64,000 nt of DNA from Alphaproteobacteria bacterium UBA3635 (lineage in GTDB: Bacteria > Pseudomonadota > Alphaproteobacteria > Rs-D84). The position numbers and the translations under genes are program-made. Below are positions 27,801 to 45,701 of the stretch, in pieces. The notes below the pieces were generated by a model. That model was not told the origin of the DNA, searched no databases, and saw only the letters and a program-made list of their open reading frames with translations. Each line of letters opens with the position of its first letter. The first letter of the stretch is position 1. Location of the stretch: assembly GCA_002373935.1 (NCBI GenBank), contig DFKW01000004.1, forward strand, positions 27,704-91,703. Direction: 5' to 3'.

Positions 27801-27951
27801 AAAACATTCTCTCTATTTTAATAAAATATATCAAAAATCATAATGTTGCGCAATAAAAAACGACGGGCAAAAACCCGCATTTATTCAGGCAAAATTTTAT
27901 GTTGCAAACACGGCTTTTTTTGTTTAACATGCAAGCACACAACGCATCAAA

Positions 27952-28025
27952 GGCCAGGTGGCAGAGTGGTTATGCAGAGGACTGCAAATCCTTGTATGCC
28001 GGTTCGATTCCGACCCTGGCCTCCA
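27952..28025 (+). tRNA. tRNA-Cys (GCA)
   Basis: GGCCAGGTGGCAGAGTGGTTATGCAGAGGACTGCAAATCCTTGTATGCCGGTTCGATTCCGACCCTGGCCTCCA. Cloverleaf with anticodon GCA and an encoded CCA end. Confidence 0.9.
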
Positions 28026-28037
28026 ATTTTTTTCAAA

Positions 28038-29120
28038 ATGATTGATTGTTTAACTCTGACCGATTTTAGAAACCACAAAACATCGCGCATAAATACACAT
28101 GGCGCAAAAAACATTGTTATCATTGGCGAAAATGGTGCCGGCAAAACCGCCGTACTGGAGGCGATATCCATGTTATCCGGGGACCGTGGTATGCGCGGGG
28201 CGGACATGTCTGATATTGCGCGATTTGGTGGCACGGGTGGTTTTTCGGTGTTTTGTGAAACCACGGGCGACGATTTAATATCTGTATATTTTAACCCGGG
28301 CGAAAATAATCGGCACGCAAAAATAAATGACGAAAATGCCGCATTGGGGGAATTGGGAAAAATATTGCGCATTGTGTGGATTTCCCCACGCGAAGACCGT
28401 TTGTTTGTGGATAATGTCGCCGACCGGCGCGCATTTTTTGACCGCATGGCATCTAACTTTGACCCGGCACACATTGGGCGCACCGCACGATTTTCAAAAC
28501 TGTTATCGGAACGGGCGGCGGCATTAAAATCGGGCGCAGATGCACATTGGTTGGACGCATTGGATGACCAATTGGCGGGTGTTGCGGTTGCGGTGGCGAC
28601 GGGGCGCGTGCAATATGCGGGCGAATTAAATTTCTTTTTGGAAAAATTTAGTGTGTCGGTTGACGGCATTATCGAAAAAATGATAATTGCGGGCACGCCT
28701 GCGGCGGCGGCAGAACGCGAATATCGTAATTATTTGGCACAAAATCGCGAGTTGATATATGACAAAATGGTTTTGGATGGGCCACATAAATCTGATTTCG
28801 GGATGTTTAACAACGAATTAAATTTGCCGGTAAAAACCACCAGTACCGGTCAACAAAAAAACGCGTTATTTGATTTGGTTTTGGCACACACAGATTTATT
28901 ACACACAAAAACAAAACAAAACAGTATTGTATTGCTGGACGAGGCCGCCGCCCACCTGGACGCGGGGACGCGCGCAAAAATTTTCAAAAAATTAAACGAT
29001 ACACATACCCAGGTTTGGGCAACCGGATTGGATGCCGGGGCGTTTGTTGATGTGCCGGACGCCGTATTTGTCACTTGCGCGGACGGCGAAATTAGTTCTA
29101 TAATCCATCCGGAGATTTAA
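28038..29120 (+). CDS. recF: DNA replication and repair protein RecF
   Basis: LTLTDFRNHK followed by Walker A GENGAGKTAVLEAI. C-terminal signature and Walker B LLDE. Start set at MIDCLTL, downstream of the tRNA. Confidence 0.85.
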   Translation: MIDCLTLTDFRNHKTSRINTHGAKNIVIIGENGAGKTAVLEAISMLSGDRGMRGADMSDIARFGGTGGFSVFCETTGDDLISVYFNPGENNRHAKINDENAALGELGKILRIVWISPREDRLFVDNVADRRAFFDRMASNFDPAHIGRTARFSKLLSERAAALKSGADAHWLDALDDQLAGVAVAVATGRVQYAGELNFFLEKFSVSVDGIIEKMIIAGTPAAAAEREYRNYLAQNRELIYDKMVLDGPHKSDFGMFNNELNLPVKTTSTGQQKNALFDLVLAHTDLLHTKTKQNSIVLLDEAAAHLDAGTRAKIFKKLNDTHTQVWATGLDAGAFVDVPDAVFVTCADGEISSIIHPEI

Positions 29121-29121
29121 C

Positions 29122-29589
29122 ATGGCAAAAATTGATTATCAATTATTACTGGATGGGGCGTTAAAATCTGTGGTCAAAGACGCGTTGATTTATGCCCAAA
29201 TAAACGGTCTGGGCGACGGGGCGCATTTTTTCATTACTTTCAAAACCCGTGACCCGGGGGTCCAGTTGCCTGATTTTTTACGCATGCGGTATCCCGACAT
29301 TATGACGATTGTATTACAGTATTCTTATACAAACCTGCATGTGTCGGACAAAGAATTTGGTGTGCAGTTGACATTTGATGGGCGGCCGTTTTTTATTCGC
29401 GTGCCATTTTCCGCATTGGTTGAATTCAAAGACCCGTCGGTTGATTTTATTTTAACATTTCAACACAAATCTATGCCGGAATCTGCGGATAACGATATGG
29501 AATTGCCGTTGGATGAAAATAAAAATTCTGTGCCGGACGATAAACGCGTCGTGTCATTGGATGAATTTAGAAAGAAAAAAATGCAATAA
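29122..29589 (+). CDS. sspB: ClpXP adaptor SspB (stringent starvation protein B)
   Basis: 155 aa. HFFITF...PGVQLP...MTIVLQ...FGVQLTFDGRPFFIRVPFSALV parallels the SspB substrate-binding fold. Disordered acidic tail ends in a hydrophobic ClpX-binding-like segment. Confidence 0.6.
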   Translation: MAKIDYQLLLDGALKSVVKDALIYAQINGLGDGAHFFITFKTRDPGVQLPDFLRMRYPDIMTIVLQYSYTNLHVSDKEFGVQLTFDGRPFFIRVPFSALVEFKDPSVDFILTFQHKSMPESADNDMELPLDENKNSVPDDKRVVSLDEFRKKKMQ

Positions 29590-29618
29590 AAATCGTCCAA
29601 ATGGACGTTTTTTATTTT
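29590..29618. terminator. Bidirectional terminator
   Basis: aaaatcgtccaaatggacgttttttatttt. Confidence 0.6.
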
Positions 29619-29624
29619 AACATG

Positions 29625-30125
29625 TTATTTATTGAAAATTTCGCCGCGAAAGTCCGGGTCACCCAAAAAATTATATGAACAACGATATGTGCACAGGTTT
29701 GCACATTCGGCGGTATTGCGGAACTCACCACGATATGCCCATTTTGTCGGTGTTGTTTTATGTATATCGGATGTAGTCGCAATTATTTTACACCAACAAT
29801 GCGGACCGCGTTTTTCCGCCGCAATAAACATCCCATCGGTGTTTTTGTCGTTGCATGTACTGGTCCCCAGGACATTTGTTTCATCATAAAACGCGCGCCA
29901 ATCACCCGGATTTAATCCCGTTGCATGATTTTTCGCACTTTCGTCCAATTGGTAATAGCCCGAACCAAATCGAAACCAATCGATATTCGTGTCATCAACA
30001 TATTGCGGAATATTTTCCGCCACCGCATCGGCAAAATCGTTCGTGACATTTCCATATTCGTCGTATTCAGCAAACGCCGGTACGCATACAAACATCAATA
30101 AAAACGCGATAATTTTATTTTTCAT
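29625..30125 (-). CDS. Secreted cysteine-rich protein with the CWCK/CxxxCxYxCxY/PDFR C-terminal module
   Basis: Signal peptide MKNKIIAFLLMFVCVPAFA. C-terminus ..HCWCKIIA..KWAYRGEFRNTAECANLCTYRCSYNFLGDPDFRGEIFNK. Confidence 0.6.
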   Translation of the reverse strand: MKNKIIAFLLMFVCVPAFAEYDEYGNVTNDFADAVAENIPQYVDDTNIDWFRFGSGYYQLDESAKNHATGLNPGDWRAFYDETNVLGTSTCNDKNTDGMFIAAEKRGPHCWCKIIATTSDIHKTTPTKWAYRGEFRNTAECANLCTYRCSYNFLGDPDFRGEIFNK

Positions 30126-30195
30126 AATTCATATTATATCACAAAAAATATAATAAAAAAAGGGGGGCATGCCCCCAATTTTTATTTTTTTATTT

Positions 30196-41195: not shown

Positions 41196-41272
41196 GGATG
41201 TTTAGCTCAGTTGGCTAGAGCATCTGCTTTACACGCAGAGGGTCAGGGGTTCGAGTCCCTTAACATCCACCA
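41196..41272 (+). tRNA. tRNA-Val (TAC)
   Basis: GGATGTTTAGCTCAGTTGGCTAGAGCATCTGCTTTACACGCAGAGGGTCAGGGGTTCGAGTCCCTTAACATCCACCA. Anticodon loop TT-TAC-AC. Confidence 0.9.
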
Positions 41273-41371: not shown

Positions 41372-41606
41372 AAAAACGCGGATGCGTTTTTGTCATCCTG
41401 AGCGGAGTGAGTCCAACTTGGCGGAACGCCAAAGCCGGACGAACGCAGTCGAAAGTGAGTCACCAATGGTGACGAACGCGGATCCAGGCATATTTGATGT
41501 CGGGCGTATACGCGCCAACAAATTTGTCTTTGCCAAACCTTAGATCCACGCGGTCTAACGACCGCTTTCGACTGGCGCTCAGGATGACAAAATGCTGGCG
41601 CATTTT
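41372..41606. repeat. About 200-bp multi-hairpin palindromic element with 13-bp terminal inverted repeats (MITE-like or structured ncRNA)
   Basis: TIR gtcatcctgagcg (41392-41404) pairs with cgctcaggatgac (41576-41588). Inner pairing cgcagtcgaaag with ctttcgactggcg. Internal hairpins gtcaccaatggtgac and ggcgtatacgcgcc. Flanking hairpins aaaaacgcggatgcgttttt and aaaatgctggcgcatttt. Confidence 0.5.
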
Positions 41607-41657: not shown

Positions 41658-42108
41658 GACATCAGAAATCACCAGGGAGTTGATTTCGGAAAGGCACTTC
41701 AAAAGCCTGAACATAACCGGTGCAAAGTTTGCATCGTGACTCTCCCGCACTCGTCCGATTCGATTCGGCGGGGCTGTGTTTGTTGCATACATATTTTGCA
41801 CCGACATTTATTTGTCGATTTTTTTGATTTATAAATGTAAATTTTTATTCCCACTATGTGAACCCCATCGTTGTATTTGGCGGGGGTGCTGCATACAGTA
41901 ATGTATGTGGGATCATTGTTATGTTTGGTTTTTGAACACCCTAGCCGCGCTCTTCCTGATGATGGCGGTGTTTTTTTTGTGTTTTGTTTTACTGCGGGAT
42001 TTTTTCAAACCGAATCCAATTCCCAGTAAAAAAACTAAGGCCATAAAAAGTTCCGATAAAACAAAACACATCCACCGCACTAATAAAACAACGAACGGGG
42101 AGAAAGAA

Positions 42109-43644
42109 ATGAAAAAAATTTTATGTGCGATGTTGGGAATAATCGGGATGTTCATAACACCGGCTTACGCATTACCGGCGGGGTATACAGAGTTAGAGTA
42201 TATCAAATCCACCGGGACACAGTATATTGACGATATAATAAAACCTAATCAAAGATATTCATTTGAAATTAAATACAAGCATACTGTATCAGAAGGTTAT
42301 CAACCATTGTTTGCATTATACGATGGTACTTCAGGTTATTCGTATGGTTTTATGGAAGGTAGTGCAGAAAAAGGAAATTATGCCTATAGCGGCAATAGCG
42401 AAACTTTTACATTAGCATATGATACCAGCACTATATATACATTATATTACGATGGAATAAATAAAAAGGTGTTTCGTAATGGAACAGAAATTGTAGATTT
42501 TAGTGATACAACAGGTTTTTCTGGAACAACAGGTGTTGCACCAAGACTTTTCCAAATAAGAAACGGAGAACATTATAGTAGTACTTTTAGTTATTCGTTT
42601 AAAGGTTACGCATACAGTTTTAAGGTATACGATGATAATAATAATTTAGTTCGCAATATGATTCCTGCTAAACGCAACAGCGATAATGCGATTGGTATGT
42701 ACGATACGGTTGGCGGGCGGTTTTATGAAAATGCAGGTTCGGGTTCTTTCATTGCCGGCCCGGTTGCAGAAATCAAAGTTGCAACCACAAAGTATGTGGA
42801 AACGCAGTTTAGTGATTTGGGCACGCGGTTGGCGGCGGCGGTGGCGACAGTGAATACGGTCGTGACCCAGACGATTGCCCAGGCGGGGAGTATTGCAACT
42901 TTGCAGAGTGGCAAGCAAACCCGCCCAGATGAAACCTGTCCCGCCGGTAAAAAGTGCCTGCTGGTTGAGGGGACCGACGGCCAACCCCATTGGTATGAAA
43001 TATTTGACCCGATAAACCGCTGGTTAGAGGCATTTTTCAAAACAAACCCGAACGGACAACTTGTCGATGGTGGCGCAGATTTCCGCCGGTGGCAGGGTAA
43101 CCCAGATTTCCGCGAAACATATATTGATGGTTCAACATCGGTCTATGCCCGTCAATGGACGGCGGCATCGCCCGCACGCTCGATTGGTGGCTTGTATCAA
43201 ACATTGCCTGCGGGCGACATTGAAAACGCCGGCACATGGGCGGTTGAATTTGATGGCACCGAGGGCGACGGCGTAAACGCGGGCGCGGTGTATGGTATTG
43301 CAAAATGCACGTCTGTGGTGGGGACAATTGCCACAAAATTGACATCGGCGCAAGAGAGTGCGTTCTATACATTACCGGCACCGGTGGGTCAAACGGACAA
43401 TGCAAATTATCCGCGGGAAAACTTTAAAAACTGCTGGTGCAAGATGACGGCGGTGGGTGTGCCTGGTGCGGATGGAACGGCTGCAAACGGTTCTGTGTAC
43501 CCTGTAAATGCGTCGTCCTCTGCGTGGGTCTTCAGCCCCACGTTCGGTTCGGCCGCCGCTTGTGCGGGCAACTGTGCGTACGACTGCGCGTACCGCGTCC
43601 GTGCTAACGCAGATTTTAGAACCGCAGTTTTTGGTTTGGATTGA
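42109..43644 (+). CDS. Secreted protein: signal peptide, AT-rich lectin/ConA-like N-domain, GC-rich C-terminal region ending in the CWCK/CxxxCxYxCxY/DFR module
   Basis: RBS ggggagaaagaa then ATG; MKKILCAMLGIIGMFITPAYA. C-terminus ..NCWCKMTA..AWVF..AAACAGNCAYDCAYRVRANADFRTAVFGLD. ORF-track start 41905 is an upstream in-frame extension. Confidence 0.65.
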   Translation: MKKILCAMLGIIGMFITPAYALPAGYTELEYIKSTGTQYIDDIIKPNQRYSFEIKYKHTVSEGYQPLFALYDGTSGYSYGFMEGSAEKGNYAYSGNSETFTLAYDTSTIYTLYYDGINKKVFRNGTEIVDFSDTTGFSGTTGVAPRLFQIRNGEHYSSTFSYSFKGYAYSFKVYDDNNNLVRNMIPAKRNSDNAIGMYDTVGGRFYENAGSGSFIAGPVAEIKVATTKYVETQFSDLGTRLAAAVATVNTVVTQTIAQAGSIATLQSGKQTRPDETCPAGKKCLLVEGTDGQPHWYEIFDPINRWLEAFFKTNPNGQLVDGGADFRRWQGNPDFRETYIDGSTSVYARQWTAASPARSIGGLYQTLPAGDIENAGTWAVEFDGTEGDGVNAGAVYGIAKCTSVVGTIATKLTSAQESAFYTLPAPVGQTDNANYPRENFKNCWCKMTAVGVPGADGTAANGSVYPVNASSSAWVFSPTFGSAAACAGNCAYDCAYRVRANADFRTAVFGLD

Positions 43645-43709
43645 TGAAACTTGCATATTAGAAATATTTGGCTATAATCAAATCTGAACTGTAAAAAGGA
43701 TTTGGTATA

Positions 43710-45701
43710 ATGGCACAGAAATATTTAATTACATCGGCGTTGCCCTATGTGAACAATGTGTTACATATTGGGCATTTGATTGGATGTTTATTGCCAAGTG
43801 ATGTTTATGCGCGTTTCTGTCGCGCGTTGGGTCGCGATGTGTTATATATTGGTGGTTCTGATGAACATGGAACCCCGTCCGAGGTTGGTGCCCAAAAAGA
43901 AAATATGCCGGTCGAAGATTATGTCGAAAAATACCGCGCAAAACATCTGGACGCGGTGCGGGATTTTAATTTGTCTTTTGATTTATATGGTCGCACGCAT
44001 ACAAAATTGCACGAAAAATTAATTCATGAATTGTTTGAACGGTTGGACTCGATGGGTATGGTTTATGAAAAATCGTCAATGCAGCCGTATTCAATAAATG
44101 AAAAAAAATTCTTGGCGGACCGGTATGTTATTGGGACTTGCCCGCGGTGCGGATATGATGGCGCGTATGGGAACGAGTGCGATAAATGTGGCGCGTCACT
44201 GGACCCGGATCAATTGATAAATCCGCACAGTGCCGTTGACCCGTCGTCCCCGGTTGAAATGCGTGAAACAAAGCATTTGTATTTTAGATTAAGTGCCATG
44301 CAGGATAAATTACGCGCATGGATAAATTCACGCCAGGGGTGGCCAAAAACCGCAATCGCAATCGCAAATAAATGGTTGGACGAAGGACTGCGCGATAATC
44401 CAATTACTCGTGATTTGAAATGGGGAATTCCGGTTAATAAACCCGGTTTCGAAGACAAAGTTTTCTATGTTTGGTTTGATGCGCCGTGGGGTTATGTTTC
44501 AATTTCCCAGGCGGCAACGGACAATTGGGCCGATTGGTGGAAAAACCCGGATTGTAAATATGTGGAATTTATGGGCAAAGATAATGTATCTTTCCATTCT
44601 GTATTTTTCCCGGCCCAAGAATTGGCAATGGATGATGGATGGAAAACCGTCGATGTGTTAAAAGCGTTCAATTTTATGAATTTTAATGGTGAAAAAATTT
44701 CTAAATCACGCGGCAACGGTATATTTTTAGACAATGCGTTATCAATCGCGCCAAGTGATTGCTGGCGGTATGCGTTGCTGGCATCGGCACCGGAAACAGA
44801 CGATACCGATTTCACCGTGCAAAAATTTGCAGAAATCGTGAATAAAGATTTGAACGGTATGTTGGGGAACTTTGTTTCACGCGTTTGCAAACTGACCGAG
44901 AAAAATTTTGGATTGGTGGTCCCAAATCAAAGTTCAAAGTTCAAAGTTCAAAGTTCAGTTATAGCAGATAAAATAAACAAAAAATTAAACGATTTAACCA
45001 CTGCATTGGATCAATGCGAATTTCGTGCGGCGATTTTTGCGCTGCGTTCGCTGTATGCGATTGGTAATGAATATATGACGGAAACGGCACCTTGGGCATT
45101 GGTCAAAGACGGTAAAATGGACGATGCCGGTTCTGTGTTGAATAACTGTTTTCAAATGATTGATTTATTTGCACGCGTGTCGGCACCGTTTATGCCAACT
45201 ACCGCCGCAAAGATGCAAAATATTTTTGGCGCGACGCATGATTTGTCGTGGCCGACATGTTTTGAACACAGAATCGCAAACGGTGAAAAATTTGCCGTGC
45301 CGGAAAATCTGTTCGAAAGAATTGACGATGCGCGTGTCGCAGAAATCAACGAAAAATATTCGGCAAAGCCAAAAACAGCCGCCCCGGTTGTCGCAAAAAT
45401 TTTGGATATTAAATCACATCCCCGGCGCGATGATTTACACATTTTGACGGTGGACAGTGGCAACGACAAATTACAAATCGTTTGTGGTGCGCCAAATGTG
45501 CGCGTGGGGATGGTTGGGGTTTTGGCACCGGTTGGGTGCGTTTTACCGGGCATGACAAAACCATTGGCGGCGCGTAATGTCGGCGGGGTAAAATCCAATG
45601 GCATGATGTGCAGTGCGCAAGAATTAGGTGTTGGGGGGGATGCCACAAAAATTATTGAATTGGATGATACATATAAAATTGGTTCGGAATATAAAGGATA
45701 A
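43710..45701 (+). CDS. metG: Methionyl-tRNA synthetase with C-terminal tRNA-binding (EMAP/Trbp111-like) domain
   Basis: HIGH as NVLHIGHLIG, zinc knuckle CPRCGY..CDKCG, KMSKS as KISKSRGN, C-terminal tRNA-binding domain. Confidence 0.9.
   Translation: MAQKYLITSALPYVNNVLHIGHLIGCLLPSDVYARFCRALGRDVLYIGGSDEHGTPSEVGAQKENMPVEDYVEKYRAKHLDAVRDFNLSFDLYGRTHTKLHEKLIHELFERLDSMGMVYEKSSMQPYSINEKKFLADRYVIGTCPRCGYDGAYGNECDKCGASLDPDQLINPHSAVDPSSPVEMRETKHLYFRLSAMQDKLRAWINSRQGWPKTAIAIANKWLDEGLRDNPITRDLKWGIPVNKPGFEDKVFYVWFDAPWGYVSISQAATDNWADWWKNPDCKYVEFMGKDNVSFHSVFFPAQELAMDDGWKTVDVLKAFNFMNFNGEKISKSRGNGIFLDNALSIAPSDCWRYALLASAPETDDTDFTVQKFAEIVNKDLNGMLGNFVSRVCKLTEKNFGLVVPNQSSKFKVQSSVIADKINKKLNDLTTALDQCEFRAAIFALRSLYAIGNEYMTETAPWALVKDGKMDDAGSVLNNCFQMIDLFARVSAPFMPTTAAKMQNIFGATHDLSWPTCFEHRIANGEKFAVPENLFERIDDARVAEINEKYSAKPKTAAPVVAKILDIKSHPRRDDLHILTVDSGNDKLQIVCGAPNVRVGMVGVLAPVGCVLPGMTKPLAARNVGGVKSNGMMCSAQELGVGGDATKIIELDDTYKIGSEYKG
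44927..44959. repeat. AGTTCAAAGTTCA repeat (4 tandem units) inserted in frame within metG
   Basis: caaagttcaaagttcaaagttcaaagttcagtt encodes ..NQSSKFKVQSSVIADK.. in the anticodon-binding region. The reading frame is preserved. Confidence 0.75.

Follow-up and report, generated by a model that had tools for sequence, protein, structure and literature searches.

The question raised by this locus is why two secreted proteins end in the same cysteine-rich module, and what this module might do. The two proteins are encoded in a stretch of 64,000 nucleotides of Alphaproteobacteria bacterium UBA3635 (contig DFKW01000004.1), here called the window. They comprise 166 amino acids (aa) (copy 1, 29625..30125, minus strand) and 511 aa (copy 2, 42109..43644, plus strand), the coordinates including the stop codons. 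Both open reading frames (ORFs) are exactly as quoted in an earlier sequence-only reading of the window, which described the common module and suggested either a disulfide-stabilised domain or a C-terminal sorting or secretion signal. What that reading missed, and what is invisible without comparative data, is that the C-terminal helix of copy 2 shows the variability generated by a diversity-generating retroelement (DGR). In our account, which we regard as highly probable as a whole, the module is a stapled exported binding domain which is rewritten by a DGR in copy 2 and is fixed in copy 1. To our knowledge, DGRs are the only natural system of targeted protein hypermutation known in prokaryotes. 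For the order Rs-D84, to which the genome is assigned, genomes of less than 1 Mb and a dependent lifestyle based on fermentation are described (PMC12306168).

The variable region of copy 2

The near-identical paralogs P0017-P0023 of copy 2 diverge sharply after the conserved motif SSAWVF, in the CxxxCxxxC stretch, and the residues which vary there are only those that NNC codons can encode (N, any nucleotide). The same is seen at the DNA level in the window and in two further loci, L013 and L014. The variable codons differ at positions 1 and 2 and keep C or T at position 3, and the Cys, Ala, Val and Arg codons between them are identical even at synonymous sites. Between the window and L014 the 84 nt of the variable region (VR) contain 15 non-synonymous and no synonymous differences (11, 9 and 1 by codon position), compared to 4 non-synonymous and 12 synonymous ones (3, 1 and 15) in the adjacent 93 nt upstream.

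By comparison with the paralogs and with the template repeats (TRs) described below, the VR of copy 2 extends over 43525..43634 on the plus strand. It is composed of a core of 84 nt which matches the TR of L017 (43525-43608), with the mutable codons at 43534-43608, and of a constant 3' stretch (43609-43634), which is the putative initiation of mutagenic homing (IMH) region. The distance from the end of the VR to the stop codon is 10 nt. In three target genes GC-rich hairpins (67-74% GC, dG -21 to -31 kcal/mol) start at the stop codon (L013:2911-2980, L014:11833-11902 and L016:4739-4809). One metagenome-assembled genome (MAG) encodes at least four apparently diversified paralogs with a VR.

Throughout the family the restriction of the variable sites can be traced by the residues found there. 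At the 12 variable sites exclusively NNY-encodable residues (Y, pyrimidine) occur in 72 of 132 C-terminal domain instances and in 19 of 73 internal ones, where 16.5% would be expected; K, E, Q, M and W are accordingly absent from these sites in 72 of the 132 C-terminal instances.

Template repeats and reverse transcriptases

Setting every variable site to adenine led to a predicted template, the 36-mer GCCGCCAATTGTGCGAACAACTGTGCGAACAACTGC, for which exact matches could be identified in two metagenome contigs of the Joint Genome Institute (JGI), L016 and L017. The template of L016 translates as AAWVFNNTNSSAANCANNCANNCANNVRNNAGFRAAVFG and lies 0.6 kb upstream of a gene (1407-2432) for a reverse transcriptase (RT) of 341 aa. 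This RT matches PF00078 with E=1.3e-11, its nearest NCBIfam model is a group II intron RT, and it contains the motifs IGNLTSQ and YCDD, the former of which fits the [LIV]GxxxSQ pattern that we take to be the signature of DGR RTs. A target gene ending in the module is located on the same contig. In L017 the target, the TR, an ORF of 108 aa and the RT are all encoded on one strand, and the RT is 79% identical to that of L016. The cognate TR/VR pairs are mismatched at 16 of 110 nt in L016 and at 13 of 115 nt in L017, and every one of these mismatches (16/16 and 13/13) falls on an adenine of the template.

The window VR was compared to the TRs of these related metagenome contigs, not to one of its own genome. 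Even so all 17 mismatches between its core and the L017 template fall on adenines, and none of the 58 non-adenine positions is changed (chance p=1.2e-11). This corresponds to 17 of the 26 adenine sites. Changes confined to adenine sites are the signature of adenine-specific mutagenesis by a DGR, and on this nucleotide pattern the last helix of copy 2 is a DGR variable region. The 26 adenines of the template belong to twelve AAY codons, one ACG and one AGT codon. All scaffold residues (Cys, Ala, Val, Arg, Phe and Gly) are encoded by adenine-free codons in the template and therefore never change. The number of protein variants which could theoretically arise from this template is about 2e15.

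Between TR and RT both cassettes contain a further ORF, which encodes 122 aa in L016 (1020-1388, plus strand) and 108 aa in L017 (918-1241, minus strand). The two products are 81% identical. They have no match in Pfam or NCBIfam and do not appear Avd-like, and no Avd homolog was recognised in either cassette. This ORF could be a new DGR accessory gene.

The shared domain and its distribution

The C-termini of copies 1 and 2 align in BLASTP with E=1e-7 (29% identity over 68 columns), and a profile comparison of 17 copy 1 orthologs with 37 copy 2 relatives by hhalign resulted in a probability of 98.4% and E=8.4e-15 over copy 1 residues 84-165. The module common to both proteins is thereby confirmed; a six-frame motif scan revealed no third copy in the window. 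Six cysteines are invariant in 97 diverse instances, as had been proposed. Only five of them, however, lie within the roughly 60 aa that were quoted for them (CWC and CxxxCxxxC), and the sixth is found upstream (C91 in copy 1, the Cys of AKC in copy 2). Correspondingly, what had been called a knot of four cysteines contains three. W76, G87, W111, W129 and R160 (copy 1 numbering) are nearly invariant in the same 97 instances, and in alignment A4 the six cysteines are among seven invariant columns.

When 1.84 billion representative proteins, clustered at 50% identity, were searched with the profile, further members appeared in large numbers: no fewer than 1,238 clusters match at E<=1e-3 and no fewer than 284 at E<=1e-10. 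A word-indexed homolog search with domain alignment yielded 19 proteins, most of which were already known. The proteins carry one to seven copies of the domain, including internal tandem arrays, and reach lengths of up to 6,218 aa. In giant relatives the domain alternates with Listeria-Bacteroides repeats (PF09479; for P0143, with six domain copies, E=2e-109).

The suspicion that the module is not a known domain was borne out. No Pfam or NCBIfam model is matched by either window protein, by 17 additional members or by any row of A4 (76 in total), a sequence profile search of the PDB with the module gave 0 matches, and a PHROGs search returned no useful match to it. The Pfam family Cys_rich_CWC (PF14375), which was considered because of its CWC and its several cysteines, has no match to the window proteins at E<=1 and none among 76 members at E<=0.01, so that the resemblance is one of name only. 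Tandem and internal copies together with the wide spread argue against both a sorting signal and a local duplication; the possibility of a recent local duplication only, which had been left open, is contradicted by the number of clusters. The module is a real, mobile extracellular domain of about 100-175 aa which is absent from Pfam and NCBIfam, and with this study a family of at least 284 clusters (at E<=1e-10) is defined.

Some architectures of the family deserve mention. P0142 (6,218 aa), P0148 (4,750 aa), P0143 (2,382 aa) and others contain five to seven domain copies between Listeria-Bacteroides repeats; with K, E and Q in the helix regions these giant multi-copy proteins look non-diversified. 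P0025, P0026, P0032, P0051, P0053, P0092 and P0141 have two domains, one at about residues 95-225 and one at the C-terminus, and in both of them only NNY-encodable residues occupy the variable sites. These relatives may be targets with two VRs, one of which is internal.

Predicted structure and proposed mechanism

AlphaFold2 (AF2) predicted mature copy 1 on the basis of the 97-row alignment with a predicted local distance difference test score (pLDDT) of 88.9 and a predicted template modelling score (pTM) of 0.79. In the model five β-strands precede two helices, the first long (model residues 119-136) and the second short. The helix cysteines are found at positions i, i+4 and i+8, the cysteines of CWC lie in the strand 90-98, and the sixth is located at the end of the strand 64-73. 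For the last 180 aa of copy 2 (43102..43641, plus strand), which contain the domain according to this model and to alignment A4, pLDDT was 84.3 and pTM 0.81. The segment is ordered from about its residue 28 and its elements follow in the same order as in copy 1; the VR corresponds to the loop after WVF and to the helix 151-168. From the periodicity C-A-x-x we infer that Cys and Ala would occupy the packing face of the helix and the two variable residues its exposed face. The three helix cysteines are predicted to pair with the three sheet cysteines, one at a strand end and two in the CWC strand. Both proteins have signal peptides and a related MAG contains a DsbA-family gene, which fits with periplasmic oxidation. 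A cysteine-rich, probably disulfide-stabilised domain in Sec-exported proteins, one of the two options of the sequence-only reading, is thus in agreement with these predictions. No similarity of the module structure to C-type lectin (C-Lec) or formylglycine-generating enzyme (FGE)-type domains was found, and we lean towards a scaffold which is truly not a C-type lectin.

We propose that the module is an exported binding domain in which a C-terminal α-helix lies across a small β-sheet and would be stapled to it by three cysteines on one helix face (C-x3-C-x3-C). In copy 2 and its paralogs the loop and the helix following the WVF strand would be the VR. The hosts would be Alphaproteobacteria of the gut and the rumen whose genomes are reduced (Candidatus Enterousia, order Rs-D84). 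There a template repeat located elsewhere in the genome would be transcribed and copied by an RT which is error-prone at adenines, and the resulting cDNA would overwrite the 3' end of the target gene. As the template reads WVF NNTNSSAAN CANN CANN CANN VR NN AGFR, its AAY, ACG and AGT codons would be randomised, and the variable side chains would be carried by the stapled helix, on its solvent-exposed face, and by the loop before it. The most likely role of proteins of the copy 2 type is that of a variable adhesin or receptor at the surface; surface display and ligand binding are inferred. Such a system suggests that uncultured, dependent gut Alphaproteobacteria (Enterousia/Rs-D84) might vary their surface, be it for attachment to a partner or for evasion of phages or hosts.

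Alternative explanations

That the hypervariability of the paralogs arises without a retroelement, by diversifying selection or by cassette recombination and gene conversion, might be supposed because these small genomes harbour many modular paralogs, conditions under which gene conversion occurs frequently. It would not explain, however, why third codon positions and every non-adenine site of the template are spared, why K, E, Q, M and W are missing from the variable sites in more than half of the C-terminal instances, or why an all-adenine template could be predicted and was then found beside an RT, twice. The template and RT findings refute this explanation for the family, and overall we consider it extremely improbable. 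We judge equally improbable the other option of the earlier reading, according to which the module serves as a C-terminal signal for sorting or secretion. Indeed, in 146 of 187 proteins no more than 10 residues follow the last domain copy, but this preference for the C-terminus can be attributed to the requirement of DGRs for a VR at the 3' end (PMC8144416). Moreover, domain copies are also internal or in tandem, up to seven per protein, in many proteins a Listeria-Bacteroides repeat follows the domain, and the models show a confident globular fold of more than 100 aa. Known sorting domains such as the C-terminal domain of the type IX secretion system (T9SS CTD), PEP-CTERM, GlyGly-CTERM and similar ones were not matched in NCBIfam or Pfam. 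It is further conceivable, but unlikely in our opinion, that the module is a C-Lec fold after all, as proposed in 2021 for uncharacterised VR domains, and therefore a structurally ordinary DGR target. Its VR is C-terminal and closes with a conserved FR, a loose likeness to the GFR in which VRs of the CLec1 type end. So far all DGR variable proteins which were solved or modelled are C-Lec, and new variants of that fold keep appearing (PMC8144416, PMC10743442, bioRxiv 2024.11.15.621889).

More weight has to be given to the possibility that the window copy 2 is a fossil target, whose VR is old or was gained by recombination with an active paralog. Several observations count against an active DGR target in the window. 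No TR or RT is encoded in its 64 kb, and the search of 15 further loci for TR or RT was also negative. The related organisms from which the templates stem are higher in GC (0.48-0.50 compared to 0.43 for the window), and over its final 26 nt the window VR departs from these templates at 8-10 non-adenine positions. Unlike the targets of L013, L014 and L016, copy 2 is followed by AT-rich sequence without a GC-rich hairpin (26% GC at 43642-43711), as is its positional ortholog L015 in MAG GCA_046881955.1. The VR of this syntenic ortholog (L015:11537-11686) is decayed: it is mismatched to the template at 23 non-adenine positions, contains NNT codons and has scaffold Ala replaced. Because of the missing hairpin and the decay in L015, copy 2 of the window may serve only as a poor or weak target, or may be a former one, retired recently. 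On the other hand, all 58 non-adenine core positions match a template from another metagenome while 17 of 26 adenine sites are changed; the blurring seen in L015 is lacking, so that any loss of activity must be recent. In addition, remote targets without an adjacent cassette are normal for DGRs (PMC5758913). Altogether we regard a fossil VR in the window as a possibility of the less likely kind. It has also to be borne in mind that the fold and the disulfides are predictions, and that the role of copy 1, a fixed-helix paralog which presumably binds one constant ligand, is deduced from homology only.

As a separate observation, the VR is pristine in the window copy and in L013 and L014, two paralogs of L015 from the same MAG. 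This suggests turnover in which paralogs serve as DGR targets.

Comparison with known systems

The VRs of DGRs were classified as C-type lectins (CLec1-3), putative immunoglobulin (Ig) domains and unknown types in bacteria of the candidate phyla radiation (CPR) (PMC5758913). In the largest survey Roux et al. (2021) re-assigned the Ig cases and described annotated VRs as "systematically associated" with C-Lec, an association termed "near-universal" (PMC8144416). A study of phage tentaclins (PMC10743442) and a 2024 survey of Bacteroides (bioRxiv 2024.11.15.621889) came to the same conclusion. Our literature search revealed nothing that links DGRs to Rs-D84 or describes a DGR scaffold other than a C-type lectin. 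The two JGI contigs (Ga0310690_10037297 and Ga0247611_10081279) may already be among the clusters without annotation in the catalogue of 2021.

With the C-type lectin proteins (Mtd of Bordetella phage, TvpA of Treponema, LdtA of Legionella and TaqVP of Thermus) the present system has in common the C-terminal VR, the adenine-mutagenic RT, a template dominated by AAC, invariant scaffold residues interspersed with variable ones, exported or surface proteins, and several remote targets per element. It differs in that the module is predicted to be a β-sheet with a helix and apparently three disulfides, with variable residues mostly on the helix instead of on a β-hairpin and loops, and in that the cassettes contain the unmatched 122/108-aa ORF between TR and RT in place of a recognisable Avd. 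Hence the DGR mechanism is known, whereas the scaffold is new and the domain family undescribed. We rather think that a second, structurally unrelated DGR solution is at hand, in which a helix is stapled by three invariant disulfides, randomisation affects two out of four helix residues, and multiple remote targets are served in uncultured gut Alphaproteobacteria with genomes below 1 Mb. If this is true, the C-type lectin fold can no longer be seen as the near-universal, and perhaps uniquely suited, target scaffold of DGRs. Protein engineers would also gain a compact scaffold for helix display, with about 1e15 variants from the simple logic of adenine-free versus AAY codons. For directed evolution, E. 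coli is currently being equipped with DGRs (bioRxiv 10.64898/2026.07.21.739853).

Two other systems invite comparison. In the giant surface proteins with Listeria-Bacteroides repeats (Flg_new, PF09479), which are 1,000-6,000 aa long, the domain and the repeats alternate, which supports an extracellular, adhesin-type role; PF09479, however, does not cover the domain, and Flg_new repeats are absent from the window proteins. In peptides of the cysteine-stabilised αβ (CSαβ) or cystine-stabilised helix (CSH) type, such as defensins and scorpion toxins, a strand with C-x-C and a helix with C-x3-C are connected by two disulfides which staple the helix to the sheet. Judged by sequence and predicted secondary structure, the module would have an analogous arrangement, with CxC in a strand and CxxxC in the helix.

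Copy 1, a stand-alone version of the domain

Copy 1 represents the stand-alone, non-diversified version of the domain. It begins with a Sec-type signal peptide, MKNKIIAFLLMFVCVPAFA (residues 1-19, 30069..30125, minus strand), with a predicted cleavage after AFA and EY as the following residues; the hydrophobic core of the signal peptide and P16/A19 are kept in the orthologs. The domain extends over about residues 40-166 (29628..30008, minus strand) according to hhalign, alignment A3 and the AF2 model. As the homology reaches back to about residue 42, the mature protein is nearly entirely one domain. Its invariant cysteines are residues 91, 110, 112, 141, 145 and 149, with CxxxCxxxC on the C-terminal helix.

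Sixteen orthologs are 54-89% identical, and 40 alignment columns are invariant. MAGs from the rumen and the gut, among them Candidatus Enterousia onthequi, harbour orthologs of copy 1. The gene is single-copy, and its place after nusA-infB and before sspB-recF is kept in related genomes. Compared to the ortholog in L005 the codons differ by 39 synonymous and 17 non-synonymous changes, 25 and 8 of which lie in the module; these ratios indicate that copy 1 is under purifying selection. An adenine-templated hypervariable VR is not present in copy 1. Its helix region is invariant or nearly so in 17 sequences and contains K and E, and its DNA has no similarity to the TR. A gene of 157 aa beside the copy 1 ortholog in L001 was considered as a paralog and was rejected, since it encodes an unrelated membrane protein.

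The gene is preceded on the minus strand by the infB terminator, a hairpin GGGGGCATGCCCCCC with a T-run (30155-30176, within 30133..30176), and by an extended -10 box TGATATAAT (30133-30141), which ends 7 nt ahead of the ATG. Downstream of the gene lies a terminator-like hairpin, CGTCCA..TGGACG with a T-run (29586..29610, minus strand), which is common to the convergent sspB. Copy 1 looks like a transcription unit of its own, flanked by terminators. No obvious Shine-Dalgarno sequence is found at its ATG, and the infB terminator upstream is strong; the mRNA may be leaderless. In the neighbourhood a tRNA-Cys gene (27952-28025) falls inside the 5' extension of the mechanically defined recF ORF (27843..29120), which places the true start of recF downstream of the tRNA.

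Gene and surroundings of copy 2

The mechanical ORF of copy 2 opens at 41905. The ATG at 42109 is preceded by the ribosome binding site (RBS) GGAGA (42098-42102) and opens a signal peptide, and P0017 is 100% identical at 511 aa. The signal peptide is followed by a β-rich N-terminal module, a linker with the motif CPAGKKCLLVE and the C-terminal cysteine domain. The locus lies between tRNA-Val and metG. The modular family of copy 2 comprises at least 440 relatives, with many paralogs per genome, and its records include the designation "MAG: Alphaproteobacteria bacterium".

In the region of residues 22-331 (42172-43100) the N-terminal module ends with AIGMYDTVGGRFYENAGSGSFIAGPVAE and the linker motif is KQTRPDETCPAGKKCLLVEGTDGQPHWYEI; no Pfam model exists for either. 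Both recur in various combinations in hundreds of relatives, many of which terminate after one of them and not with the cysteine domain.

Upstream of copy 2, perfect inverted repeats of 17 nt, TTTTGTCATCCTGAGCG and CGCTCAGGATGACAAAA, enclose 171 nt (41388-41592). They are located in a gene-poor stretch of 840 bp between tRNA-Val (41196-41272) and copy 2, and the element looks like a miniature inverted-repeat transposable element (MITE). Similar repeat translations of the HPERSE type are found in L016 and L017.
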